IMG/VR virus record: IMGVR_UViG_3300027627_000219
Location: 1 to 28,686 of that record
Reading direction: 5' to 3' (one strand)
DNA from: a virus
Taxonomy: Duplodnaviria; Caudoviricetes
Length of the DNA: 28,686 bases
This document shows, in pieces, positions 314 through 28,619 of this stretch (within the stretch, counting starts at the first letter, position 1; every line of letters starts with the position of its first letter). Below the pieces are notes generated by a model. That model worked only from the letters and a program-made list of their open reading frames with translations. It was not told the DNA's origin and ran no database searches. The position numbers were made by a program, and so were the translations under genes.

Positions 314-1525
314 ATGGCTTACGCAAATAGCAATTACAGCGATGTTCTTGCAACCACGATTGAGTCTCGGTCAGGCATCGTTGCGGATAACGTAACGAAA
401 AACAATGCCCTGCTGACTCGGCTGCAGGAGAAAGGCCGTTATAAGCCCGTCTCCGGTGGCTCGACAATCCTGCAAGAACTGTCGTTCCAAGGCAACTCGA
501 CTGCAATGTATTACTCTGGCGCAGAGGTGCTCGACATCTCTCCCGCCGATGTGATCAGCGCGGCTCAGTATCCGATCAAGCAGGCCGCGGTTGCGGTGAC
601 GATCAACGGTCTGGAAATGCTGCAGAACGCTGGCGAAGAGCAGATCATCGATCTGTTCGACGCACGGCTGGATGTCGCAGAAGCCAGCATCGAGAACCTG
701 ATCTCCACCGGCATCTATTCTGACGGCACGGGTTCGAACGGGAAGCAGATCACGGGTCTGCAGGCGATGGTTGTAGCTTCGCCTTCAACCGGGACGGTCG
801 GTGGCATTGACCGCTCAACGTGGAGCTTCTGGCGCAACCAGGTCTTCGACTTCTCGACAACCTTGAGCGCGTCAGCTTCAGCGTCCAACATCCAGACGGG
901 CTTTAATGCTCTGTATGCGAAGACAAGCCGCGGCTCTGACGTTGTTGACCTGATTCTGCTGGACAACAACTTCTGGGGATTCTTTATGTCCTCGATCCAG
1001 AATCTGCAGCGTTTCCCGACCTCGAGCAAGATGGCGGATCTGGGATTCGTTGCATCAAAGTACATGAACTGCGATGTGGTTCTGGACGGTGGTATCGGAG
1101 GCAACGTGCCTGCGAATACCGGATATTTTCTCAACTCGAAGTACATTTTCTTCAGGCCTATGGCGGCAAGGAATTTCGTACCGATCGGGGACGAGAGGAT
1201 GTCTACGAACCAAGACGCTAAACCAACTTTGCATTAACGCACAAAGATGGCGTCTCTAAATCTTCTCTTATTGACTTGGAAACCCAGAAGTGGGCAACAG
1301 GGCGCAAGCAGCGAAAGTGTGCAGCGTGAACGACTAAGTGAGAAGACCGGCAATGCCGGATGCGATAGTCTGAACTTGGGTATAACCAAAGAAGCCCAAG
1401 AGTGTAATCCGAAGCGGTTACACCACATCGAAAGATGGAGTAACAAATTGATCGTGCGTTTGATTGGGTGGGCAGGCAACATGACTGCCTCTGGCTTGCA
1501 GTTCCAAGGCATTCTTACTGAATAG
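314..1525 (+). CDS. major capsid protein, spliced: exon 1 314..1219 + exon 2 1451..1525 (326 aa)
   Basis: Capsid-like sequence (IESRSGIVADNVTKNNALL, GGSTILQEL, GIYSDGTG, GGIDRSTWSFWRNQ). The unspliced ORF stops at 1237; joining 1219 to 1451 restores in frame ...ERMSTNQDA|IVRLIGWAGNMTASGLQFQGILTE, a typical capsid C-terminus. Confidence 0.9.
1220..1450 (+). ncRNA. group I self-splicing intron (231 nt, no homing endonuclease)
   Basis: 5' exon ends in U and intron ends in G; P1 gacgcu (1214-1219) / ggcguc (1249-1254) with U.G at the splice site; P3 ucuucuc (1261-1267) / gagaaga (1340-1346); P7 gacua (1332-1336) / uaguc (1366-1370); P8 ccggc-aau-gccgg; P9-region hairpins including cauc-GAAA-gaug. 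Confidence 0.92.
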
Positions 1526-1534
1526 GAGAAGATC

Positions 1535-2068
1535 ATGGCTGACTATGTTACTGATGGAAAAATCGGCGTAGATCTGACGGCTATTTATGCGTCTGTCTCT
1601 GCGGGTTCGACTTCGACGTTCCCCGCTACGCCTGGAGAGACTGTAATGACCAGCAATAACGGTCGCTACATTTTCGCAAGGGCTGAGTCCACGATTGCCC
1701 AGTTCGACGCGGTGGTCTTTAGCACGTTCTCTGATTCGGCATCCGCTACGCCGATTCTGAGGGCTGTGCCGATCACAACGACGAATGCGGCAGCTCTGGG
1801 ATTTTCGATGGTCGGGGTCGCTCAAACGGCGATCACCAGCGCGTACTACGGCTGGATCGGCTTGAACGGAGTTCTTAGGACAAACCTGTTGATCGCTTGC
1901 AATCCCAAGGTGCCGCTGTACACCACCGCTACCGCGGGATCGCTTGATGACACAACGGTGAGTTCTGGGTATATCCAAGGCATCGTTGCCAACACTTCGG
2001 CAACGTCTGCTTCGGCTCCGTTCTGCATTGTCAACAATGCTGGCTTGATGACCTCTAATCCGGTCTGA
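1535..2068 (+). CDS. capsid decoration/cement protein, Ser/Thr/Ala-rich
   Basis: Immediately after the capsid gene, strong RBS (aggag), followed by a terminator; beta-rich with GVAQTAI...YYGWI motif typical of cement proteins. Confidence 0.7.
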   Translation: MADYVTDGKIGVDLTAIYASVSAGSTSTFPATPGETVMTSNNGRYIFARAESTIAQFDAVVFSTFSDSASATPILRAVPITTTNAAALGFSMVGVAQTAITSAYYGWIGLNGVLRTNLLIACNPKVPLYTTATAGSLDDTTVSSGYIQGIVANTSATSASAPFCIVNNAGLMTSNPV

Positions 2069-2074
2069 TGAAAA

Positions 2075-2108
2075 GGGGAACCCTTCTAGACGTAGAGGGG
2101 TTTTTCTT
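2075..2108 (+). terminator. intrinsic terminator after capsid/decoration genes
   Basis: aacccttcta-gacg-tagaggggtt hairpin followed by tttctt. Confidence 0.75.
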
Positions 2109-3746
2109 ATGACATTTGTTCCTCTCAAAATCGTTGGCAAATGCGTGATGGATGACGACACGTTATTCAGCGCAATGGACTTCGCTATTGCCAAAGGTTT
2201 CCCAGAGATCAAGCGCATGGAGCCAGCGCGGGATGGCGTTGTTGCCATCATTGCGTCTGGGCCGAGTGTGGCGGGTCAAATAGATGTCATAAGAAAAATG
2301 CAGCAGGCAGGGACACCTCTTGTTGCGGTGAAAGACGCGCATGACTGGCTGATAGAAAACGACATCATCCCCGAGTTTGCTCTGGCGATAGATCCACAAG
2401 AGCATCGTTGGAACTGCTTCAAACGCAAGCACGAGGCTGTAAAGTATCTGATTGCCAGCCAATGCCACCAGGCGATGTTTGAGCACCTTGATGGCTACGA
2501 TGTCACGATCTGGCATCCGTACATCACCAAGGGACAGACGAGACCTCTGAACCGCATGGTGGTCGGAGGTGGAACGACTTCCGGCTTGAGGGCAATAAGT
2601 CTGTTCTACACGCAGGGCTGGCGGCACTTTGCGCTGTTTGGGTTTGACTCATGCAATGACGGTCCGAGCCTGCGGGTCAACGGCGATCGGATCAAGGCCG
2701 ATGACAAGCTGCACGAGGTCAGGATCGATCTGGAGGGTGAAACCTTCTACTGCAACGCAGCGATGGCATTGCAGGCAGAGCACTTCCAGACCTATTACGA
2801 TGCCATCCCAGACGCTCAATTTTACGGGTACGGGCATGGACTGATTCAGTCCATCATTGCCAAGCGGGAGAAGAATCTCGAACTGTTACAACAGCAGAAG
2901 AACGAGCCTCCAGATAACAGGGTTTCTTTCATCCATTTCGGGAATGCAACGTCTGCATCGTGGCGTTATCGGGCAAACATTCCCGCCGATGGCTGGGCAA
3001 CGCTCAATGATCTGACTGCCGGGACGCTGGTATTTGCAAAACCACAAGCCACCGAATTGATGGCAATGGCGGCAGCAAAGATGCAAGGCAAGCGGGTTAT
3101 TGTAGATTTCTGCGACGATCATTTTGATTGGACGCACTATGCCGAGGCTTTGCGGCTTGCGGATGTTGTGACTTGCCCGACAGAAGCCATGCAGCAAAGA
3201 ATTGCAGAGCTCGGCAAACAGGCAACGGTCATTCCAGATCCGTTCGAATATCCTGAGTGCGGTCCACACAGCCGCGGGAAAAATCTTCTGTGGTTTGGTC
3301 ATGCGGTCAACAAAGCCAGCCTGGACAGAATCCTGCCGGATCTGAACGACTACCCGCTGCGGGTGGTGAGCAACTTTGCAGGGGCAATCCCGTGGAGCCA
3401 TGAAACGATGCTTGATGAATTCATGGTTGCAGACATCGTTGTTGTGCCTGCGACCGACGAAAAGAAAAGTGCGAACCGAGTTATCGAGTCGATCAGGCAG
3501 GGCTGCTTCGTGGTGGCAGAGCCCCATCCGGCGATCAAAGACTTCCCCGGCATCTGGATCGGCGACATCAAAGAGGGCATCGAATGGGCGCTACAGAACC
3601 AGCACGAAGCAAACCGGCGCATTGGGAAGGCTCAAAGATACTTGAAGGCAAAATATACGCCGCGAATATGTCGCGCCATGTGGAAGACGATTACGAAACT
3701 GCCTACAACCTCGGATGCGGCAAAAAGAACTGGCACGGATGGATAA
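2109..3746 (+). CDS. fusion of MptE/Maf-like (DUF115) domain and GT-B glycosyltransferase domain
   Basis: N-half: AIIASGPSV, AHDWLIENDIIPEFALAIDP, GGTTSGLRAISLFYTQGWRHFALFGFDSC. C-half: IVDFCDDHF, ADVVTCPT, VIPDPFE, LLWFGH, KSANRVIESIRQGCFVVA. Confidence 0.8.
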   Translation: MTFVPLKIVGKCVMDDDTLFSAMDFAIAKGFPEIKRMEPARDGVVAIIASGPSVAGQIDVIRKMQQAGTPLVAVKDAHDWLIENDIIPEFALAIDPQEHRWNCFKRKHEAVKYLIASQCHQAMFEHLDGYDVTIWHPYITKGQTRPLNRMVVGGGTTSGLRAISLFYTQGWRHFALFGFDSCNDGPSLRVNGDRIKADDKLHEVRIDLEGETFYCNAAMALQAEHFQTYYDAIPDAQFYGYGHGLIQSIIAKREKNLELLQQQKNEPPDNRVSFIHFGNATSASWRYRANIPADGWATLNDLTAGTLVFAKPQATELMAMAAAKMQGKRVIVDFCDDHFDWTHYAEALRLADVVTCPTEAMQQRIAELGKQATVIPDPFEYPECGPHSRGKNLLWFGHAVNKASLDRILPDLNDYPLRVVSNFAGAIPWSHETMLDEFMVADIVVVPATDEKKSANRVIESIRQGCFVVAEPHPAIKDFPGIWIGDIKEGIEWALQNQHEANRRIGKAQRYLKAKYTPRICRAMWKTITKLPTTSDAAKRTGTDG

Positions 3747-4183
3747 ACGTCGATCAATGCGAAACGGCAGACCTCCGATGCGACATCCGCAAGCTGGAGA
3801 TTGCCAATGATTCAGCCGATGCGGTTGCTGCAATCCATGTTCTGGAACACTTCTACGATTGGGAAGCGTTCGATCTGCTCACGGAATGGAAACGCATCTT
3901 GAAACCTGACGGCAAAATGATCATCGAGGTGCCTTGCCTGGACAAGGTATTTGCCTACATTGCGGATCAAATATCAAAAAACGAAATCTTAGAAAAGTAC
4001 ATGACTGTGCATCCGATATTCGGCGATGGAAAATATAAAAACCCAGCCATGATGCACAAGACAGGTTATTTCGTGAACAGCCTGAACAATTTGTTGATCG
4101 ATGTTGGAATGCGCGAGGTCACCCTGTGCGAGCCGCGCTACCACTTTCCGCACCGCGACATGAGGTTTGAAGCAATCAAATGA
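3668..4183 (+). CDS. class I SAM-dependent methyltransferase (Methyltransf_11-like)
   Basis: NLGCG motif I, CDIRKL, IHVLEHF, EWKRILKPDGKMIIEVP. Start uncertain (ATG 3668, GTG 3680, or 3584). Confidence 0.85.
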   Translation: MSRHVEDDYETAYNLGCGKKNWHGWINVDQCETADLRCDIRKLEIANDSADAVAAIHVLEHFYDWEAFDLLTEWKRILKPDGKMIIEVPCLDKVFAYIADQISKNEILEKYMTVHPIFGDGKYKNPAMMHKTGYFVNSLNNLLIDVGMREVTLCEPRYHFPHRDMRFEAIK

Positions 4184-5016
4184 TCGGCGTGATGACAAAC
4201 GAGGACCGGCACAACCAGATGGCGAAAGCCATAGGTCTGTTCCCTATGCTGCAAAAGCGAGGCAAGTTCCTGCCTCGCCGAGCCTCGATTGCCTGCTACG
4301 GGCCGAGCCTTGCCGATACCTGGCAGAAGCTGCGCCGCCCCATCATCACCGTTTCTGGTGCGCACGATTACCTGGTGGAGCGCGGGATCGTGCCTGATTT
4401 CCATGTGGACTGCGATCCCAGACCGCACAAGCCAGAAATGCTCAGGAAGCCCCAGAAGGCGACGATTTACCTGATGGCTAGTGTCTGCCATCCCCGGTTC
4501 TGGGAAGCCCTGCAGGGGCGTTCTGTGCGGTTGTGGCACCTGATTAACGGGGACGACTTGGAAACGGTGGCATGGGTTGCCCAAAACCATCCGGTGGGCA
4601 TCAAAAGCATGATCGGCGGCGGTTCGTCGGTAGGAATGCGAGCGATGAACGTGGCGGCGGCGCTTGGATACCGGAAATTCGACATCCACGGGATGGATTG
4701 CTCGTTCACCGAAAACCGTCACGCTGGGGCGCATACCGGCGGCAAGCAAGTCGAAACTCTGGTGCAAGCGGGTGACAGGATTTTCAAGACAACCAAGCAA
4801 ATGCTGCAAGCGGCGATCGAGATGGAGCATTTCCTGCAACAGCAGGACGCGGAAGTACGGTTTTACGGTGATGGACTCATGCAAGCAACTTCTAAAATTC
4901 TGAGGCAAAGAGATGAAACAAGAAACTGCGGGATGGACGAACGAACTGTTCATGGCAGAAACCCAAGGGAAAAACGCAGTCTTTTTCCATCCGGTGCAAG
5001 TGCAGAACGATTTTAA
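4180..5016 (+). CDS. second MptE/Maf-like (DUF115) protein
   Basis: IACYGPSL, AHDYLVERGIVPDFHVDCDP, GGGSSVGMRAMNVAAALGYRKFDIHGMDCS; paralogous to the N-half of 2109..3746; ATGA overlap with the methyltransferase. Confidence 0.8.
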   Translation: MIGVMTNEDRHNQMAKAIGLFPMLQKRGKFLPRRASIACYGPSLADTWQKLRRPIITVSGAHDYLVERGIVPDFHVDCDPRPHKPEMLRKPQKATIYLMASVCHPRFWEALQGRSVRLWHLINGDDLETVAWVAQNHPVGIKSMIGGGSSVGMRAMNVAAALGYRKFDIHGMDCSFTENRHAGAHTGGKQVETLVQAGDRIFKTTKQMLQAAIEMEHFLQQQDAEVRFYGDGLMQATSKILRQRDETRNCGMDERTVHGRNPREKRSLFPSGASAERF

Positions 5017-5527
5017 GACTGCGGAAGCTGGGAGGCCCATTTTCCAAGAGCAGATATTCATCAAAAAGCTGATCTCTGGGGACAACACGCTCATCATTGA
5101 TCGCAAGATGAGGGCCACCGACGAAGACGAGCATCCGAAAGAGTGGGAGATGTTCAAGAACAAGCGGCTGAACATCGTGCCGGGAACGCCGATTGATGCG
5201 TGGCACATCCTGAGCGAAACGCAGAAAGCCGAGTTCAAGGCTCTGAACATTTTCACCATCGATCAGTTTGCCCAGCTGCCTGACATTGCCGGCTTGAAGA
5301 TCATGGGGTTCAACGAACTGCGAACCAAGGCTCGGACATTCATTTCGGCAAGCAAGGACTCGGAAGTCTTTGCCGCGATGAAAACCGACATGGATGCTAA
5401 ACTGGAAACCAAATCCAAAGAGATCGACGAGTTGCGGAAAATGATCGAAAGTTTCCAGCAAAAACCCAAGAAACTCGGCAGGCCGAAAAAGGTTAAAAAT
5501 GAGCTACACGCTGCTGCAACTGGTTGA
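4913..5527 (+). CDS. conserved phage protein of the head-tail region
   Basis: AEAGRPIF...GTPIDAW...LNIFTIDQFA pattern, C-terminal coiled coil and basic GRPKK tail; located before the adaptor. Confidence 0.7.
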   Translation: MKQETAGWTNELFMAETQGKNAVFFHPVQVQNDFKTAEAGRPIFQEQIFIKKLISGDNTLIIDRKMRATDEDEHPKEWEMFKNKRLNIVPGTPIDAWHILSETQKAEFKALNIFTIDQFAQLPDIAGLKIMGFNELRTKARTFISASKDSEVFAAMKTDMDAKLETKSKEIDELRKMIESFQQKPKKLGRPKKVKNELHAAATG

Positions 5528-6416
5528 CCAGGTCTCCGGTGAGCTGGGTCTGACTCAGCCCACCGCGGTGATCGGCTCAAGCACCAATCAGACGGTTCAG
5601 TTCCTTGCCCTGGCGCAACGCCTCGGCAAGGATCTGGTGCGCGACTTTGAGTGGCAGAGGCTGGTGCAGGCGTACATCTTCCAGACTACCGCCGCGACAA
5701 CCACCACAGGAACCATCACAGCGGCTTCTGCGGTCATCACTTCCATCCCCAGTACCGCAGCCCTCGCCGTTGGAAACGTGGTCACAGGGACAGGGCAAGC
5801 CCCCTACGCGCAGATCCTGACGATCGACAGCGGGACGCAAGTGACTCTAGACACGCCGGTAACCACCTCGACCGCGGCTGTCAGCATGACGTTTGCAAAA
5901 CAGGACTATTCCTTGCCCAGCGGCTTTGACCGGATGATCAGCGACACGCAATGGGATCGGACGGACCATTGGCGGAACATGGGGACAAAAAGCAGTCAGG
6001 AATGGCAATACTTGCAGGGCGGGGTGATTTCGGTGGGACCGAGAGAGCGTTACCGTATCTACAACCAGAAATTCAGGATATTCCAAGCGTTGACAACGGT
6101 TTATACGTTTTCGTTTGAATATGTCAGCAACTATTGGGTCATGGCTACGGGCGCGACTGTCGGATCAAAATCAGAATATACCGCCGATTCGGACGTTTCG
6201 GTGTTCCCTGATGACCTGATGTTGGCGGGACTCAAGTATTACTTCCTGAAGGCGAAAAAGCTCGATTATGGGATTGAGTTGGGTGAATTCACACGGGCGC
6301 TGAGTTACTGCAAGGCGCAGGACGTTCCGGTGCCGAGCGTCAGTCTGGCTCCGACAGGGATGCACGAGCTCGTCGGGCCGTGGTCGATCCAAGATGGCAA
6401 CTGGCCTGCCGCCTGA
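5499..6416 (+). CDS. head-to-tail adaptor (tail tubular protein A-like) with Thr-rich insertion
   Basis: TLLQLVDQVSGELGL N-terminal helix, DYSLPSGFDR, FPDDLMLAGLKYYFL; position upstream of the nozzle. Confidence 0.7.
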   Translation: MSYTLLQLVDQVSGELGLTQPTAVIGSSTNQTVQFLALAQRLGKDLVRDFEWQRLVQAYIFQTTAATTTTGTITAASAVITSIPSTAALAVGNVVTGTGQAPYAQILTIDSGTQVTLDTPVTTSTAAVSMTFAKQDYSLPSGFDRMISDTQWDRTDHWRNMGTKSSQEWQYLQGGVISVGPRERYRIYNQKFRIFQALTTVYTFSFEYVSNYWVMATGATVGSKSEYTADSDVSVFPDDLMLAGLKYYFLKAKKLDYGIELGEFTRALSYCKAQDVPVPSVSLAPTGMHELVGPWSIQDGNWPAA

Positions 6417-8942: not shown

Positions 8943-9376
8943 GTGAGATCATTAAAGGACACGAGGTTGGAGAATGGGTTGCGAAACGTGTTCGCGGTGG
9001 ATACTTTGCAGAACGCAGTCAGGCAATCGGACTCAAGCGTGGCGAGATCGTTGCCGGTGTTATCTACGAGAACTGGAACCACGCGAGCATCTGGTGCCAC
9101 ATTGCAGTTGAAGGCAGGCTCACGCCGGAATACCTGGCGGCGATATTTGATTACCCGTTCAACGTGTGCCAAGTGGAAAAGATTATCGTGCCGGTCGGAA
9201 GCGAGAATGACGAGAGCTTGCGGCTGGTGAAGAAGATGGGTTTTGTCGAAGAGGGCAGAATCAAAGACGGTCGCCCAGACGGTGACATTGTATTTTTGAC
9301 GCTGGCACGGGATTCGTGCCGGTACACAGGAGAACGATATGGGAAAAGACTCACCCAGCCCACCCGCTGTGCCTGA
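8939..9376 (+). CDS. GNAT-fold acetyltransferase-like virion assembly protein, probable CTG start
   Basis: Frame open from 8924: LSEIIKGHEVGEWVAKR...IVAGVIYENWN...IFDYPFNVCQVEKI...NDESLRLVKKMGFVEEG. The ORF track shows only the last 70 aa. Confidence 0.8.
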   Translation: MSEIIKGHEVGEWVAKRVRGGYFAERSQAIGLKRGEIVAGVIYENWNHASIWCHIAVEGRLTPEYLAAIFDYPFNVCQVEKIIVPVGSENDESLRLVKKMGFVEEGRIKDGRPDGDIVFLTLARDSCRYTGERYGKRLTQPTRCA

Positions 9377-11003
9377 CTACCCCGGAGCCGCTCAAGCACA
9401 AGGAGTTGCAAACGAAGCTGCAGCGCGACTGAGTGGACGGCTAAGCAATCCGAACATCTATGGCCCGTATGGGAGCCAGACGGTAACTTTCGGATCGCCG
9501 AGTTTCGACCAGGCGAACTACGACAAAGCAATGTCTTCGTATCAAGCCAACCCCCGCGGGGCGGTGCCGATGCAGAACCAATTCTACACAGAGGAAGGGT
9601 TCGATACCGCTGGCTATCAGAATGCAATGAACAAATGGGCGGCAGGGACGAATGCGCCGACGAGGGAGCAATACACAACCAACGTCAACGCAGACCAGCC
9701 GACAGTAACTCAGACTCTGAATCCGCAAGCGCAAAAGACTCTAGACGCGCAGCAACGGGTGCAGACAAATCTTGCCAATCTTGGCGAGCAAGGAATCGGA
9801 ACTGCACAGAAGATTTTGGGAACGCCATTTTCCTTTGGTGGGCCTGGAATACAAACCTCACTCGGCAACGCTGGGCCGATCCTAACAGGAGTCAATCCTG
9901 CGGGTTATGAGGCTCAAGGACGAGTGACTGCCGGTCCCATACAAACCGGAGTCAATCCTGCTGGATACGAGGCGCAAGGACGGTTAGACACATCAAGGAT
10001 CGCTGCGATGCCTGTGAATGCAGGCACAACCGCACAGCAGGCGATCATGTCGCGGCTAGATCCGAGCATTGCCAGAAACAGGGTAAGCACGGAAACGCAA
10101 CTGATCAACCAAGGCTTGCGACCTGGCGGCGAGGCGTACAACAACGCCATCAATCTTCTGGGACAGCAGGAAAACGATCAGCGAACGCAAGCGGCTTTGC
10201 AAGGTATCGGTTTGGACTTTTCTGCCAATCAGCAAGGTTTTGGGCAAGCGACTCAACAAAACGCAATCGCAAACCAAGCCTCGGCGCAGAACCTTCAGAA
10301 TCTCCAGAACTACCAGCAACAGCAAAATGCTGCTCAAGGCTTGAAATTTGGGCAAGATTTGCAGGGTACACAGTTTGCCAACCAAGCCGCGGCGCAGAAT
10401 CTCCAGAACTTGCAAAACTATCAGCAGCAACAAAATGCCGCCCAAGGGCTGCAATTTAATCAAGGCTTAGTAGGAAAGCAGTTTGAGAATACGGCAGAAC
10501 AGAATGCGTTCGCTCGGGCAATGCAACTTCGCGGGATGCCGTTGAACGAAATCACCGCGCTTATGAGCGGATCGCAGATCCAGAATCCGACATTCCAGCC
10601 GTATCAGGGCCAGAGCGTGGCACCGGCTCCGGTTGCTCAAGCCGCGGCGCAACAGGCTCAGTACGGACAGAATATCTACAACCAGCAGATGGGCCAATCA
10701 AACGCAAACACGGCTGGGTTGTACAGCTTGGGTGGTGCTGGGTTGGGGGCTCTCGGAACGATGGGATCAACAGCATCGGGAAGTGCTGCGTTGGCTGGAA
10801 TGTTTTCTGATCGGCGCTTGAAATCAAACATCGAAAGAATTGGAACGCATCCGCTCGGAATAGGAATCTACGAGTACGACATATTCGGAAAACGAGATGT
10901 TGGCATGATGGCAGACGAAGTGGAAAGCGTTTCTCCTGCATCTGTAATAACCCATCCTAGCGGGTTCCAGATGGTTGATTACAGGAGCATTCCAAATGGC
11001 TAA
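9339..11003 (+). CDS. internal virion/ejection protein with C-terminal Peptidase_S74-like chaperone domain
   Basis: MGKDSPSPP start, Gln/Asn/Ala-rich body, Gly-rich hydrophobic segment, then SDRRLKSNI...GMMADEV...VDY. Confidence 0.75.
   Translation: MGKDSPSPPAVPDYPGAAQAQGVANEAAARLSGRLSNPNIYGPYGSQTVTFGSPSFDQANYDKAMSSYQANPRGAVPMQNQFYTEEGFDTAGYQNAMNKWAAGTNAPTREQYTTNVNADQPTVTQTLNPQAQKTLDAQQRVQTNLANLGEQGIGTAQKILGTPFSFGGPGIQTSLGNAGPILTGVNPAGYEAQGRVTAGPIQTGVNPAGYEAQGRLDTSRIAAMPVNAGTTAQQAIMSRLDPSIARNRVSTETQLINQGLRPGGEAYNNAINLLGQQENDQRTQAALQGIGLDFSANQQGFGQATQQNAIANQASAQNLQNLQNYQQQQNAAQGLKFGQDLQGTQFANQAAAQNLQNLQNYQQQQNAAQGLQFNQGLVGKQFENTAEQNAFARAMQLRGMPLNEITALMSGSQIQNPTFQPYQGQSVAPAPVAQAAAQQAQYGQNIYNQQMGQSNANTAGLYSLGGAGLGALGTMGSTASGSAALAGMFSDRRLKSNIERIGTHPLGIGIYEYDIFGKRDVGMMADEVESVSPASVITHPSGFQMVDYRSIPNG
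9873..9983 (+). repeat. 60-nt (20-aa) tandem coding repeat x2
   Basis: GPILTGVNPAGYEAQGR at 9873 and GPIQTGVNPAGYEAQGR at 9933. Confidence 0.9.
10269..10457 (+). repeat. 108-nt (36-aa) period coding repeat x2
   Basis: ANQASAQNLQNLQNYQQQQNAAQGLKF at 10269 and ANQAAAQNLQNLQNYQQQQNAAQGLQF at 10377. Confidence 0.9.
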
Positions 11004-14617: not shown

Positions 14618-16144
14618 ATGAGCTACAACGGCAGCGGTACATTTGCAATTAACAGTAGTGGTCAGCCCGTTGTCGCGGGTACGGTGATCAGTTCCACAGT
14701 CTTCAACTCTCTGACGGCAGACCTTGGGACGGGGCTCTCGACTGCGATTACGAAGGACGGGCAGACCACCACTACCGCTCGGATTCTGTTCGCCGCGGGG
14801 ATTAGTTCTACCCTGGCAACCGATGCTACGAGCATCTCTACAGGCTCGATTCTGACGCTGGGTGGGCTGGGAGTGACGAAGGCTGCGTGGATCGGTGGGC
14901 TGATGAACGTAGCAGGCGCAGCCACGTTTCAGTCCACGATCGGCATTACGGGGGCTCTGACCGCAACGACGATCAACGCTTCCGGCCTTGTAGCAATGGC
15001 AGGAGCGGCTACGGTTGGGACGACTTTGGGTGTGACCGGAACCGCTACGATGGCGGCGATCAATGCGAGTGGGGCGATTACTGGAACCACGATATCAAGT
15101 TCCAGCGGGGCAATCACTACAACCACCGACTTCAAAGTACCGACCCTTGGCTACATTTACGCCTATACCGGGGCTGGCGGTGGAACTGTTAAAGCTGGCA
15201 TCCAACTGGACGGTGCTGGGTCTATTTATTCAAAGATTGCGGATACAACAGTTACGCAGGTTACAAGTAGTGGCTTGATCGTAACCGGCACCCTCGGCGT
15301 GGGCGCTGCGCCTGTTTCCGAAAAATTCCGCGTTCAAGCGGCGGCGGGGTTCAACTTCGTTGTTGATAGTGCATCAAGTTCGATGCGTATCAGCGCAGTA
15401 AATGACGCTGATAGCTTGAACGTGCCAATGATACTGCAAGCCACTAGTATAAATATTGGTGGGGCTAATTCTCCTCCGATAACCATACCCGGCACCCTCG
15501 GCGTGACGGGGGATTTTTCCGTCAACACAAACGTAGTTTCGTTGTCTGCGAGTGCTGGCGCAAATGCGTTGAAACTGAGTTCAACGGGGTTTCTGACGGT
15601 TGGCACCGCTACCGCAGCGGGAAACGCTCACGGGTTCAAAAGCACAGCAGCGGGCTCTCAAACGCTGTCTATAGAAAACGCAAACGCCAGTACACCTTTT
15701 GCTGCATATATGTATTACTCGGCAGCGGCTCCAAACGGAACTGGAAACGAATTTCTCATCTGTGCGGATACCGGCGCTACGCGGGCAACGATTCGCTCCA
15801 ACGGCGGTATTGCTAACTTCTCCGCAAACAACGTCAACCTGTCCGATATCCGCACGAAGAAAGACATCCAACCCGCTGGCGCATACCTGCCGAAGATAAT
15901 GGCAATTCCGGTCAAGACGTTCCTTTACAACGATCAGACGGACACCGACCTCAATCTCGGCGTGATCGCACAGGACGTTGAGGCAGTAGCGCCTGAATTA
16001 ATCGACAACAGCGGGTTTGGTGAAACGCCGGATGACGGCATCCCGCTCAAAGCCATCTACCAGACCGATTTGCAATATGCGTTGATGAAGGCTCTGCAAG
16101 AACTCGCCGCAGACTTTCAAGCCTACAAAAACTCCCACCCGTAA
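14618..16144 (+). CDS. tail fibre / receptor-binding protein with C-terminal S74 intramolecular chaperone
   Basis: Anchor-like N-terminus (MSYNGSGTF...ITKDGQTT), Gly/Thr/Ala beta repeats, SDIRTKKDI...LGVIAQDVEAVAPELI...LMKALQEL. Confidence 0.85.
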   Translation: MSYNGSGTFAINSSGQPVVAGTVISSTVFNSLTADLGTGLSTAITKDGQTTTTARILFAAGISSTLATDATSISTGSILTLGGLGVTKAAWIGGLMNVAGAATFQSTIGITGALTATTINASGLVAMAGAATVGTTLGVTGTATMAAINASGAITGTTISSSSGAITTTTDFKVPTLGYIYAYTGAGGGTVKAGIQLDGAGSIYSKIADTTVTQVTSSGLIVTGTLGVGAAPVSEKFRVQAAAGFNFVVDSASSSMRISAVNDADSLNVPMILQATSINIGGANSPPITIPGTLGVTGDFSVNTNVVSLSASAGANALKLSSTGFLTVGTATAAGNAHGFKSTAAGSQTLSIENANASTPFAAYMYYSAAAPNGTGNEFLICADTGATRATIRSNGGIANFSANNVNLSDIRTKKDIQPAGAYLPKIMAIPVKTFLYNDQTDTDLNLGVIAQDVEAVAPELIDNSGFGETPDDGIPLKAIYQTDLQYALMKALQELAADFQAYKNSHP

Positions 16145-19674: not shown

Positions 19675-19911
19675 CTAACGGTGGCCCTGCGCCGCATTTG
19701 AGTCCCCGAGTTGTGGACTTGAACCACAGACCTCCCGATTATTAGTCGGGCGCTCTGCCGCTGAGCTACCACGGGGGTTGGCAATCGCTTCAGCAATCGC
19801 TTGCTTTACCGCCTCCGAATAAACTGCCCTTGTTGTCGCCAGCCATTGGCTCCCGAGGTTTATCACGGCCCATTGATCGTCTTTCGGGCCAAGCAGTTTG
19901 ACTTCGATCAT
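19675..19911 (-). CDS. hypothetical protein reading through the tRNA-like element
   Basis: RBS ggag and ATGA overlap at 19908-19911; MIEVKLLGPKDDQWAVINLG... Confidence 0.45.
   Translation of the reverse strand: MIEVKLLGPKDDQWAVINLGSQWLATTRAVYSEAVKQAIAEAIANPRGSSAAERPTNNREVCGSSPQLGDSNAAQGHR
19704..19775 (-). tRNA. tRNA-Ile-like element, anticodon AAU, possibly degenerate
   Basis: CCCGTGG TA GCTC-AGCGGCA-GAGC G CCCGA-CTAATAA-TCGGG AGGTC TGTGG-TTCAAGT-CCACA ACTCGGG G; D, anticodon and T arms pair fully, acceptor stem has two mismatches, no encoded CCA. Confidence 0.75.
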
Positions 19912-24816: not shown

Positions 24817-25022
24817 CAAAGGAAGAACTTCGCGCTGCCGCCCCGCAATCGGCGGCTTTTGTGGACGAGATGCGGGAATTATTTGGCCCAGATCTCCGCG
24901 TTCTGCGAATTGTTGAAGGCAAGGTCAACATCGACAAACGCCCAGCGTGGATGAAAGGCGAGAAGAAATGCCAAAAACAGCAGAAATCGTCGGATGGTTT
25001 TAAGAAGAGTTTGGGCAATTGA
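24813..25022 (+). CDS. hypothetical protein (69 aa)
   Basis: ATGA overlap; AAFVDEMRELFG. Confidence 0.55.
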   Translation: MTKEELRAAAPQSAAFVDEMRELFGPDLRVLRIVEGKVNIDKRPAWMKGEKKCQKQQKSSDGFKKSLGN

Positions 25023-25071
25023 AGTCAATACAAGCGCAAGAAGGAAAGTGGATTTTTTTCTGGGAGAAGAA

Positions 25072-25995
25072 ATGACCGATCTCGTAAAGTACGAAGCTGC
25101 TCGTCACGCTCTGCAAGAAGCGCATAGCGTCGATGAGGTTAAGGATATACGCGACAAGGCGCAGGCAATGCTTGCCTATGGAAAGCAGGCAAAGGATACT
25201 GAACTTATCTGGATTGCAACCGACATCAAGATTCGGGCAGAGCGCAAGGCTGGACAGTTGCTTTTGGAAATGAAGTTGAACGGGGAACGTGATAGCGGCA
25301 AGGGAAACAGAAACCCGATTTTGAAGTCGCAGGATACGACTCCAAAGTTAGCCGACTTCGGCATCAGCAAAGACCAATCCTCCCGCTGGCAGAAACTTGC
25401 TGCTGTACCAGAAAGGAAGTTTGAGCAGGCAGTAGCTGCGGCAAAAGAGATACAGGCCGAAGTCACTACCGCTTCGATGCTGCGCCTCAACACAACCCAC
25501 GTTTCGCACAACAGCGGGGAAAATGAGTGGTACACGCCGCCAGAATACATTAATGCCGCACGTTCTGCGATGGGTGATATTGACTGCGACCCTGCTTCTA
25601 GTGCCATTGCCAACAAAACTGTTAAAGCAGAAATTTATTTTACTGAAAAAGAAAATGGGTTAGCGAATAAATGGAACGGGCGCGTGTGGATGAATCCACC
25701 TTACGCACAACCGCTGTGTCAGCAGTTTTGTTCTGCGCTTGTTGAAAAATATCAAGCAAAGGAAATAGAACAGGCTTGCGTGTTGGTGAATAACGCTACG
25801 GAAACCGTATGGCAGCAGGAAATGCTATCTGCCTGTGCTGCGGTTTGTTTTGTGAAAGGCCGTGTTCGTTTTATTGATATAGCTGGGAATCCTGGCGCTC
25901 CACTACAAGGGCAAGTTTTGCTCTATTTTGGTGATAGCGTAACAACATTCAAAAAACATTTTGAATCGTTCGGCCTAATTTTTGTTCCAATATGA
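25072..25995 (+). CDS. phage DNA N6-adenine methyltransferase with N-terminal helical domain
   Basis: EWYTPP, DCDPASS, VWMNPPY, GRVRF; N-part VDEVKDIRDKA...RAERKAGQLL; RBS ggag before ATG 25072. Confidence 0.88.
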   Translation: MTDLVKYEAARHALQEAHSVDEVKDIRDKAQAMLAYGKQAKDTELIWIATDIKIRAERKAGQLLLEMKLNGERDSGKGNRNPILKSQDTTPKLADFGISKDQSSRWQKLAAVPERKFEQAVAAAKEIQAEVTTASMLRLNTTHVSHNSGENEWYTPPEYINAARSAMGDIDCDPASSAIANKTVKAEIYFTEKENGLANKWNGRVWMNPPYAQPLCQQFCSALVEKYQAKEIEQACVLVNNATETVWQQEMLSACAAVCFVKGRVRFIDIAGNPGAPLQGQVLLYFGDSVTTFKKHFESFGLIFVPI

Positions 25996-27491: not shown

Positions 27492-28175
27492 GTGCTGAAA
27501 GTGTTCTGCGGCTACGATCCAAAGGAAGCGATCGGCTTCCACGTTTTCTGTCAGTCATTGATCGAGCAGTCATCGATTGACTTGCAGATCATTCCTTTGC
27601 AGGGGATGCAAAGGGACGGAACGAAAGCGTTTACCTACTCGCGGTTTCTTGTCCCAGAGATGTGCGGGTTCAAGGGCCATGCAATCTATCTCGATGCGTC
27701 CGATATGCTGATGCTCACCGACATTGCGGAGCTCGCCGAGTTGTTTGATCCGAGCCTGAGTTGCCAGGTCGTCAAACACGACTACGAGACTAAGCATTCC
27801 AAAAAATTCATCGGCAGCGACTACGAAAGCCGGAACGCCAGCTACCCGCGCAAGAACTGGTCAAGTCTGATCTTGTGGAATTGCGAGCATTTTCCGAACA
27901 GGCTGTTGACTACGGAATACGTCAGCAAGCAGTCGGGTGAGCATCTGCACCGTTTCGGCTGGCTCGAGGATTCGCGGATCGGTGATCTGCCGAGCTGCTG
28001 GAACGTCTTGGTCGGAGAGATGGATAACACAGACACGAAGATCGCTCACTTCACTTTGGGCATCCCAGATCTGTCGTATTACGAATTCTGCGATTACTCA
28101 AACCAATGGTACGACTCTAAAAACCGTATGCTTTACGGTCCGATGCGAAAGGAGAAACGCTATGCCGCACAATGA
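27492..28175 (+). CDS. GT-A glycosyltransferase (GT8-like)
   Basis: VFCGYDPKE, FTYSRFLVP, IYLDASDML, YPRKNWSSLILWNC, WNVLVGE, HFTLGIP. Confidence 0.85.
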   Translation: MLKVFCGYDPKEAIGFHVFCQSLIEQSSIDLQIIPLQGMQRDGTKAFTYSRFLVPEMCGFKGHAIYLDASDMLMLTDIAELAELFDPSLSCQVVKHDYETKHSKKFIGSDYESRNASYPRKNWSSLILWNCEHFPNRLLTTEYVSKQSGEHLHRFGWLEDSRIGDLPSCWNVLVGEMDNTDTKIAHFTLGIPDLSYYEFCDYSNQWYDSKNRMLYGPMRKEKRYAAQ

Positions 28176-28329
28176 GGGATTGAAGAAGATGCAGGGCTTG
28201 TATGCGAACATCAACGCAAAGCAGGAGCGGATCAAAGCCGGTTCTGGCGAGAAGATGAACAAGCCTGGCAGCAAGGGCGCACCGACCGCGGCAGATTTTA
28301 AGCAGTCAGCAAAAACCGCAAAGAAATGA
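28162..28329 (+). CDS. small basic conserved phage protein
   Basis: RBS aggag; GLYANINAKQERIKAGSGEKMNKPGSKGAPTAADFKQSAKTAKK. Confidence 0.7.
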   Translation: MPHNEGLKKMQGLYANINAKQERIKAGSGEKMNKPGSKGAPTAADFKQSAKTAKK

Positions 28330-28619
28330 GCGCAGCATGGCAACGCAAGGAAGGCAAAAACCCTGCCGGCGGGTTAAATGCAAAGGGTCGCGCCAGTTAC
28401 AAGGCCGAAACAGGTGGAACGCTAAAGGCTCCTGTAAAGGAAGGCGACAATCCGCGCCGAGCCTCTTTCCTCGCCAGAATGGGCGGTATGCCAGGGCCGA
28501 TGGTTGAACCTGACGGCGATCCGACGAGGCTGGCTCTGGCTCTGAGGGCGTGGGGAGCCAGCAGCAAAAGCGATGCGAAGAGCAAAGCCGCGGCGATTAG
28601 TGCAAGAAACAAAAAATAA
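28326..28619 (+). CDS. basic conserved phage protein (DUF6321-like)
   Basis: EGKNPAGGLNAKGRASY...RRASFLARMGG...LALRAWG. Confidence 0.7.
   Translation: MSAAWQRKEGKNPAGGLNAKGRASYKAETGGTLKAPVKEGDNPRRASFLARMGGMPGPMVEPDGDPTRLALALRAWGASSKSDAKSKAAAISARNKK

Follow-up and report, generated by a model that had tools for sequence, protein, structure and literature searches.

A candidate glycosylation cassette with Maf-like enzymes in the head operon of an Mx8-like lake phage

The window, i.e. the whole stretch of 28,686 nucleotides that was analysed, comes from an Mx8-like uncultured lake phage; its features are listed in Table 1. A sequence-only reading had described three overlapping genes 3' of the decoration gene, and the open reading frames 2109-3746 (545 aa), 3584-4183 and 4180-5016 (278 aa) are present there and do overlap. 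They had been read as a fusion of a DUF115/Maf-like and a GT-B domain, a SAM methyltransferase and a second DUF115/Maf-like protein. These domains stand, by Pfam and, for the GT-B domain, by a structural model; the boundaries are corrected here. The methyltransferase most likely starts at the GTG at 3680 and not at 3584, and an ATG is found at the equivalent position in 4 of the 22 relatives listed. The conserved part of Enzyme C stops near residue 243 (~4908) and its final ~35 codons overlap the next gene. The cassette had also been placed between the decoration and adaptor genes, which is correct as an order, but an extra gene, the Mx8 p50 homologue, precedes the adaptor. The fusion in Enzyme A is a single frame of more than 500 aa in 32 of the 33 relatives examined, and no membrane helix is found in the four enzymes.

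Table 1. Features of the capsid and cassette region and the distal GT8-like gene; positions are those of the window.
Feature	Position	Strand	Basis or remark
Major capsid protein exon 1, Mx8-like	314..1219	+	phrog_9953 E 1e-96; 52% to Mx8 capsid
Candidate group I intron, ORF-less, 231-nt, splits capsid gene	1220..1450	+	P1, P3, P7 pairings
Major capsid protein exon 2	1451..1525	+	joined product 326 aa
Capsid decoration protein, inferred main acceptor	1535..2068	+	Mx8 p49 homologue; candidate sites T141, S143, S155, T157
Terminator-like hairpin adjoining Enzyme A start codon	2073..2108	+	-21 kcal/mol, z -4.3
Enzyme A: Maf-like domain (residues ~1-257; D95, D180) + minimal GT4-like GT-B domain (263-520)	2109..3746	+	
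Enzyme B: class I SAM methyltransferase (open frame from 3584)	3680..4183	+	Methyltransf_11 E 6e-9
Enzyme C: stand-alone Maf-like domain (D79, D173)	4180..5016	+	PF01973 E 3e-17
Mx8 p50 homologue, gene ahead of adaptor	4913-5527		
Thr-rich adaptor	5499-6416		
Enzyme D: GT8-like glycosyltransferase, probable fourth component	27492..28175	+	phrog_28018

Both Maf-like domains match PF01973 over the Pfam cut-off, at residues 44-183 of Enzyme A (E 8e-16) and residues 29-178 of Enzyme C. The Pfam name of this family is MptE-like, and the enzymes could be pterin or thiamine diphosphokinases, i.e. metabolic genes. Indeed, the archaeal MptE 8SD5 shares the core fold and is the second structural match to the Enzyme C model (Z 14.7). 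However, the top match is the Maf flagellin O-glycosyltransferase 5MU5 (Z 20.6, rmsd 3.1, 218 residues), with sialyltransferases lower, and Maf is also ahead in the profile comparison, with E 1.4e-7 (168 positions) against 0.022 (53 positions) for MptE. The aspartate-rich motifs of MptE and TPK enzymes bind metal and have a role in the kinase reaction. In the phage family these motifs are replaced, ADGA and DLD of 8SD5 corresponding to SGAH and xDPR, and the fusion partners are glycan enzymes. A diphosphokinase function is thus extremely improbable, and the earlier assignment as Maf-like rather than MptE-like is borne out.

The catalytic residues of Maf are E324 and D415 (10.1101/2020.06.03.131540). 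By manual counting along the HMMER alignment, their equivalents are D79/D173 in Enzyme C and D95/D180 in Enzyme A, and the two positions are acidic in 112/113 and 113/113 family rows. The Enzyme C model has the CstII-like modified GT-A fold. Maf proteins consist of three domains, with N-terminal Rossmann-like and C-terminal helical flanks (PMC11339370), and are 632-666 aa long, while the two phage paralogues are a catalytic domain only, of ~245 aa, without the flanking domains; only residues 238-503 of 5MU5 align to the Enzyme C model. Instead of a flagellar locus with flagellin and a nonulosonate pathway, the phage genes are found in a head operon, together with additional GT-B, GT8 and methyltransferase enzymes. 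Single-sequence searches against solved structures gave no match, and tblastn against 50,697 GenBank phage records found no relative of Enzyme A or C. The latter blank reflects limited sensitivity, as the family profile does reach PmgP of phage P1.

The GT-B domain has no Pfam match. Its AlphaFold model (pLDDT 96.9) consists of two Rossmann domains and matches PimA (Z 20.5, rmsd 3.2 over 243 residues) and BshA (Z 20.3). The fold is also common to the T4 glucosyltransferases (Z 17.9 and 13.4), and phage glycosyltransferases that modify DNA are described in passages of PMC12619734, so the cassette might hypermodify DNA ahead of packaging. However, this is very improbable: no thymidylate-synthase/hydroxymethylase was found in 32 records by a search whose control matched 10/14, the annotated neighbours of distant homologues include no replication gene, and DNA of this phage type has been assembled from many metagenomes. 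A search for TET/JBP was blank and is left out of this case because its control was likewise silent.

The GT8-like gene, absent from the sequence-only reading, is probably the fourth enzyme of the system. Enzyme D itself, which carries DxD-like and HFT motifs, matches PF01501 at a Pfam E of 0.05 only; of 15 homologues, 10 match this family, with a best E of 1e-5. Among its Atlas neighbours at 0.98, PF01501 is found on 24-30% of members. The gene is present in 33/33 clade genomes and 14/25 other Maf-bearing records and in 0/40 controls (39/40 of them without PF01973), and in other phages it sits within the cassette. Homologues of the Maf-like domains also occur as fusions with GT8, GT2, GT77-like and sugar-type methyltransferase domains, and two cassettes contain a nucleotide-sugar epimerase.

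The gene order of the cassette is constant in 47/47 close relatives and in all 38 clade loci with room for it; further rounds of locus searching led back to this clade. Outside the clade, virion genes flank the homologues on both sides in 25 and on one side in 10 of 36 viral loci (hand-counted), the remaining one being unannotated. These loci span at least four portal families, and fibre-like proteins are often neighbours. The proposed linkage to structural genes therefore extends to distant homologues in unrelated phages. As a pointer to capsid function, though, the late-operon position is weaker than had been implied, since BUCT555 has lysis genes in the corresponding slot, and other phages have fibres or mobile DNA there.

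GT8, GT4, Kdo- and WaaZ-type transferases build LPS cores. The chief alternative is that the enzymes instead remodel the LPS core or another surface glycan of the host envelope from the cytoplasm, and block superinfection or the sticking of progeny to debris of the lysed cell. The enzyme families are known from this setting: WaaZ is matched by 2/113 family members (best E 6e-4) and the best structure for the GT8-like profile is WbbM (E 0.008). Further, the slot takes non-head cargo, the P1 copies lie beyond the head operon, and cyanophage glycosyltransferases are given this reading in part of PMC12801897. However, PseD/Maf is the commoner match (30/113, best E 1e-10), no membrane anchor is present, and such a function would lead one to expect neither a place within the head genes of unrelated phages nor co-inheritance with the decoration type. 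We regard an envelope function as unlikely.

The candidate acceptor is the decoration protein, which aligns to Mx8 p49 ('major virion structural protein') with 30% identity over 87 aa (E 2e-8) and contains 24% Ser+Thr. Two of its Ser/Thr loops track the presence of Maf. The column of S143 is Ser/Thr in 20/22 Maf-positive vs 3/17 Maf-negative clusters and that of T157 in 20/22 vs 4/17, both columns having been picked post hoc; 3/16 Maf-negative decoration proteins are Ser/Thr-rich at those loops. The signal is confounded with lineage. The capsid tree gives only 4 independent pairs, for which a sign test yields p 0.25, and the decoration tree gives 1. To account for Maf presence, 3 changes are required on the decoration tree and 5 on the capsid tree. 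Maf-positive and Maf-negative clusters have the same bulk Ser+Thr in the decoration protein (0.19 vs 0.19, p 0.35).

The glycan might be placed elsewhere: on a capsid loop near residue 187, the adaptor, the fibres or a protein of the host, for example one that senses capsids. Capsid Ser+Thr is in fact greater in Maf-positive clusters (0.166 vs 0.149, p 0.001), capsid column 187 is Ser/Thr in 18/24 Maf-positive vs 2/29 Maf-negative clusters, and fibre-like proteins are among the neighbours. However, the Maf-positive rows that lie outside the all-positive clades (L406, L485 and L486) break the pattern at column 187, while the decoration loops hold there. Another acceptor thus seems distinctly unlikely.

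We suggest, with somewhat better than even confidence, that the two Maf-like domains, the GT-B domain, the GT8-like enzyme and the methyltransferase decorate Ser/Thr loops of the decoration protein with a short, methylated O-glycan late in infection, using a host CMP-ulosonate. Read-through past the hairpin would provide catalytic amounts of the enzymes. One Maf-like domain could then load Ser/Thr near residues 141-160 with an ulosonic acid from the host CMP donor. The other Maf-like domain, together with the GT-B domain and the GT8-like enzyme, might lengthen the chain at the expense of nucleotide sugars of the host, and the methyltransferase would cap it.

The hairpin is predicted to attenuate the cassette. 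It is kept with its T-run in 25/33 distinct relatives, and RNA contigs from two studies end at 2078, a weak hint. A promoter/terminator scan found no promoter and also missed the hairpin. The depth of the RNA contigs is unfit for ranking genes, and coverage gaps were not counted as evidence.

That the nucleotide sugars come from the host, as proposed earlier, agrees with 32 phage records in which no CMP-sugar synthetase (PF02348) or NeuB (PF03102) scores over the cut-off. Maf enzymes also accept CMP-Kdo (10.1101/2020.06.03.131540). The donor is possibly Kdo rather than a nonulosonate; CMP-Kdo would be the default guess, with a nonulosonate of the host as second choice. A Burkholderiaceae MAG with kdsB- and NeuB-like genes includes one clade contig, but binning is unreliable for the host because another cassette is binned with Saccharibacteria.

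Chloroviruses glycosylate their capsid protein with virus-encoded glycosyl- and methyltransferases, although these are eukaryotic giant viruses with N-linked neutral glycans and other enzyme families. Literature searches found no similar Maf-type virion-modification cassette; the virion glycosylation found in print concerns mycobacteriophages. There, as proposed here, phage-encoded glycosyltransferases act and the capsid is glycosylated (Freeman et al. 2023, PMID 37329881, as cited in passages of PMC11256854 and PMC12619734). According to these passages the hosts are actinobacterial, the glycans are on capsid and tail-tube C-termini, and the genes of Maravista lie near the genome 3' end; no Maf-type enzyme appears in them. 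In the pmgO-pmgP-ppp-pmgQ region of P1, PmgP matches the phage family profile (probability 95, 165 columns) and PmgO partly, while PmgQ, an annotated glycosyltransferase, matches neither our GT-B nor our GT8 profile. In P1 the homologues follow a C1 operator and are not part of the head operon, and a CRISPRi screen (passages of PMC10695390) classes them as non-essential.

More tentatively, phages of Gram-negative hosts may have widely repurposed a minimal Maf to place host Kdo directly on decoration Ser/Thr, extended by GT4-type, GT8-type and methyl transferases into an LPS-core-like coat, with enzyme set and acceptor as a swappable module of which P1 would have a version. A Maf-type route would extend virion glycosylation to phages of Gram-negative hosts, which are common in lakes. 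It would also give a function to more than 1,800 sequence clusters under the Pfam label 'MptE-like', which can be mistaken for metabolic genes, explain pmgO/pmgP of P1, and supply glyco-engineering with protein O-ulosonyltransferases of ~245 residues. New here are the GT8-like fourth enzyme, the decoration loops tracking Maf and the conserved hairpin.

The candidate capsid-gene intron lies outside the glycosylation system. An Rfam search gave no match for it; its pairings were read from the sequence, together with a 5' exon U in a U-G pair of P1 and a terminal G. With the exons joined, the capsid is as long as that of a relative (L081). A DNA contig runs across the intron, while 1219 is joined to 1451 in RNA contigs of 2/3 metatranscriptomes, for which an intron-less strain is a possible source.

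The three overlapping genes that a sequence-only reading placed after the decoration gene, A, B and C, are present and do overlap, and this cassette is real, conserved and widespread. Both A and C pass the cut-off of PF01973, the Pfam family of Maf/MptE-like domains, and B is a class I methyltransferase that probably starts at 3680. A and C are 27% identical and represent two subtypes, either of which may be the only Maf-like gene in the slot; the conserved portion of C stops near 4908. The second half of A has no Pfam match. Its model is a compact GT-B fold (pLDDT 96.9), closest to the retaining GT4-type enzymes PimA (Z 20.5) and BshA (Z 20.3), and the domain is also found as a separate protein of 250-295 aa on long contigs.

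Of the two relatives named earlier for the Maf-like domains, both profile and structure searches put Maf ahead of MptE. With a profile of 113 family sequences, the match to 5MU5, the Maf of Magnetospirillum, covers 168 positions (E 1.4e-7), and that to MptE 8SD5 covers 53 (E 0.022). The model of C (pLDDT 96.6) matches Maf best (Z 20.6, rmsd 3.1, 218 residues), with MptE second (Z 14.7), followed by SteA, sialyltransferases and thiamine kinases. E324 and D415, reported as essential in Maf (10.1101/2020.06.03.131540), align to D79 and D173 of C and to D95 and D180 of A, counted along the alignment, and these columns are acidic in 112/113 and 113/113 family rows. PseD matches 30 of the 113 members and the Kdo transferase WaaZ two. 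A and C are predicted to be Maf-like in action, yet they are not members of Maf, because they lack its flanking domains and flagellar context. The family comprises 1,864 clusters at 50% identity, and fusion partners among the 83 longer members scanned include methyltransferases and GT8, GT2 and GT77-like domains. Four Maf-like/methyltransferase fusions (P0142, P0237, P0238, P0256) are interrupted by inteins with LAGLIDADG endonucleases.

The proposed linkage to capsid genes holds: the order is fixed in the clade of close relatives, and virion genes are neighbours in unrelated phages. The order decoration-A-B-C-p50-adaptor is found in 47/47 close-clade loci with room (33 are too short) and, counted from the decoration side, in 38/38 (36 too short); the two sets overlap and belong to a single lineage. 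When distant Maf-like members served as seeds, the search gave 52 viral loci, i.e., 13 clade-like, three below 6 kb and 36 others, including some duplicates. By hand count, these 36 have virion genes on both sides (25), on one side (10) or are unannotated (1), a lenient test since virion genes make up much of such genomes. They cover at least four portal families and several capsid families. Among 160 capsid-anchored control loci, a Maf-like gene is present only in L406 and L422, in each case in this slot; other phages fill the slot with genes for fibre-like proteins, with mobile DNA or with lysis genes. The cassette is accessory, as it is absent from Mx8, BUCT555 and ppBjS10J-1. In another Maf-bearing phage, the capsid gene is directly followed by a gene whose multi-domain product includes a GtrB-like glycosyltransferase domain (L591:6666-8867).

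We suggest that the enzymes together probably attach O-glycans to the decoration protein of the virion; counting in other protein acceptors, protein O-glycosylation is likely. The main rival, modification of the host envelope, appears unlikely; hydropathy predicts no membrane helix in any of the four enzymes, the GT8-like one included. The gene 5' of the cassette is a homologue of the second major virion protein of Mx8. Its bulk Ser+Thr does not differ between the 23 Maf-positive and 29 Maf-negative clusters (p 0.35), but two loops do differ among the 39 alignable proteins (14/53 were excluded as non-homologous). In columns selected after the fact, Ser/Thr occurs at S143 in 20/22 Maf-positive vs 3/17 Maf-negative proteins, at S155 in 19/22 vs 4/17 and at T157 in 20/22 vs 4/17; three Maf-negative proteins are Ser/Thr-rich at the loops. 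Maf status requires three changes on the decoration tree and five on the capsid tree, and L406 combines a capsid of a Maf-negative clade with a decoration protein that groups with Maf-positive ones. Co-variation can be counted in only four independent pairs, none opposite (p 0.25), and a single origin is conceivable. At 305 aa, the adaptor exceeds its Mx8 counterpart (about 240 aa) and carries an insert rich in Thr at about residues 60-135; Maf-negative phages can have long adaptors too.

Virion glycosylation is already known in mycobacteriophages (cited in PMC11256854, PMC12619734), and P1 pmgO/P/Q are described as non-essential and uncharacterised (PMC10695390). No phage Maf/MptE-like system was found in the literature searched, whose coverage leaves out most subscription journals.

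In agreement with the claim that nucleotide sugars come from the host, no CMP-sugar synthetase (PF02348) or NeuB (PF03102) match exceeds the cut-off in 32 phage records. CMP-Kdo is general among LPS-making bacteria, and coliphage P1 has homologues of the Maf-like family. Maf enzymes use CMP-Kdo in E. coli (10.1101/2020.06.03.131540, PMC11339370). For these reasons we infer that Kdo is a better candidate donor than the nonulosonates first proposed. Weak PF02348 matches below cut-off lie within frames of ~530-560 aa in two clade genomes, L611/L612 (G008, G002), and two cassettes encode their own nucleotide-sugar epimerase (L487:4841-6055, L489:5109-6206).

The GT8-like assignment of the probable fourth enzyme comes from motifs, weak Pfam and structure matches and language-model neighbours. 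Its family repeatedly adjoins a Maf-like gene in distant cassettes. The gene is found in 33/33 clade genomes and in 14/25 other Maf-bearing records (most of the 14 inside or close to the query alignment), including 7/8 of the near-complete ones. It is absent from all 40 controls matched by capsid, and PF01973 is missing in 39 of these.

The gap before A is filled by a 36-nt hairpin (z -4.3), and a hairpin with a T-run is kept there in 25/33 relatives though the sequence differs. RNA contigs from two studies end at 2078, where a DNA contig runs on, a weak hint of attenuation of the cassette. Parts of A, B and C are covered by RNA contigs, which do not allow the genes to be ranked. The probable group I intron in the capsid gene has no Rfam match. 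Its removal gives a 326-aa protein, like that of intron-less relatives, and the exact 1219-1451 join is seen in RNA contigs, though an intron-less strain might also be their source. Only L160 (97.8%) shares it among the loci compared; 400 (redundant) loci have a continuous junction.

Features of the window
Feature	Position	Strand	Remark
Probable group I intron	1220-1450	+	ORF-less, 231 nt, in major capsid gene
Decoration gene	1535-2068		Mx8 p49 homologue
A	2109-3746		Maf-like domain fused to GT-B
B	open frame from 3584		SAM methyltransferase
C	4180-5016		stand-alone Maf-like
p50-like gene	4913-5527		
Adaptor	5499-6416	+	
Virion protein	9339-11003	+	endosialidase-type chaperone (Peptidase_S74) tail
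Second virion protein	14618-16144	+	endosialidase-type chaperone (Peptidase_S74) tail
tRNA-Ile	19702-19776	-	anticodon AAT
Dam-type methyltransferase	24994-25995	+	additional N-terminal domain
GT8-like glycosyltransferase	27492-28175	+	phrog_28018, far from cassette; probable fourth enzyme
DUF6321 small protein	28326-28619	+	adjoins GT8-like gene

The window is a linear virus record of 28.7 kb, ~70% complete, whose sequence is found in freshwater and lake metagenomes; complete relatives have 33-38 kb. Capsid, decoration, p50-like and adaptor genes and those after them follow the order of Myxococcus phage Mx8. The anticodon of the tRNA-Ile is unusual among bacteria.
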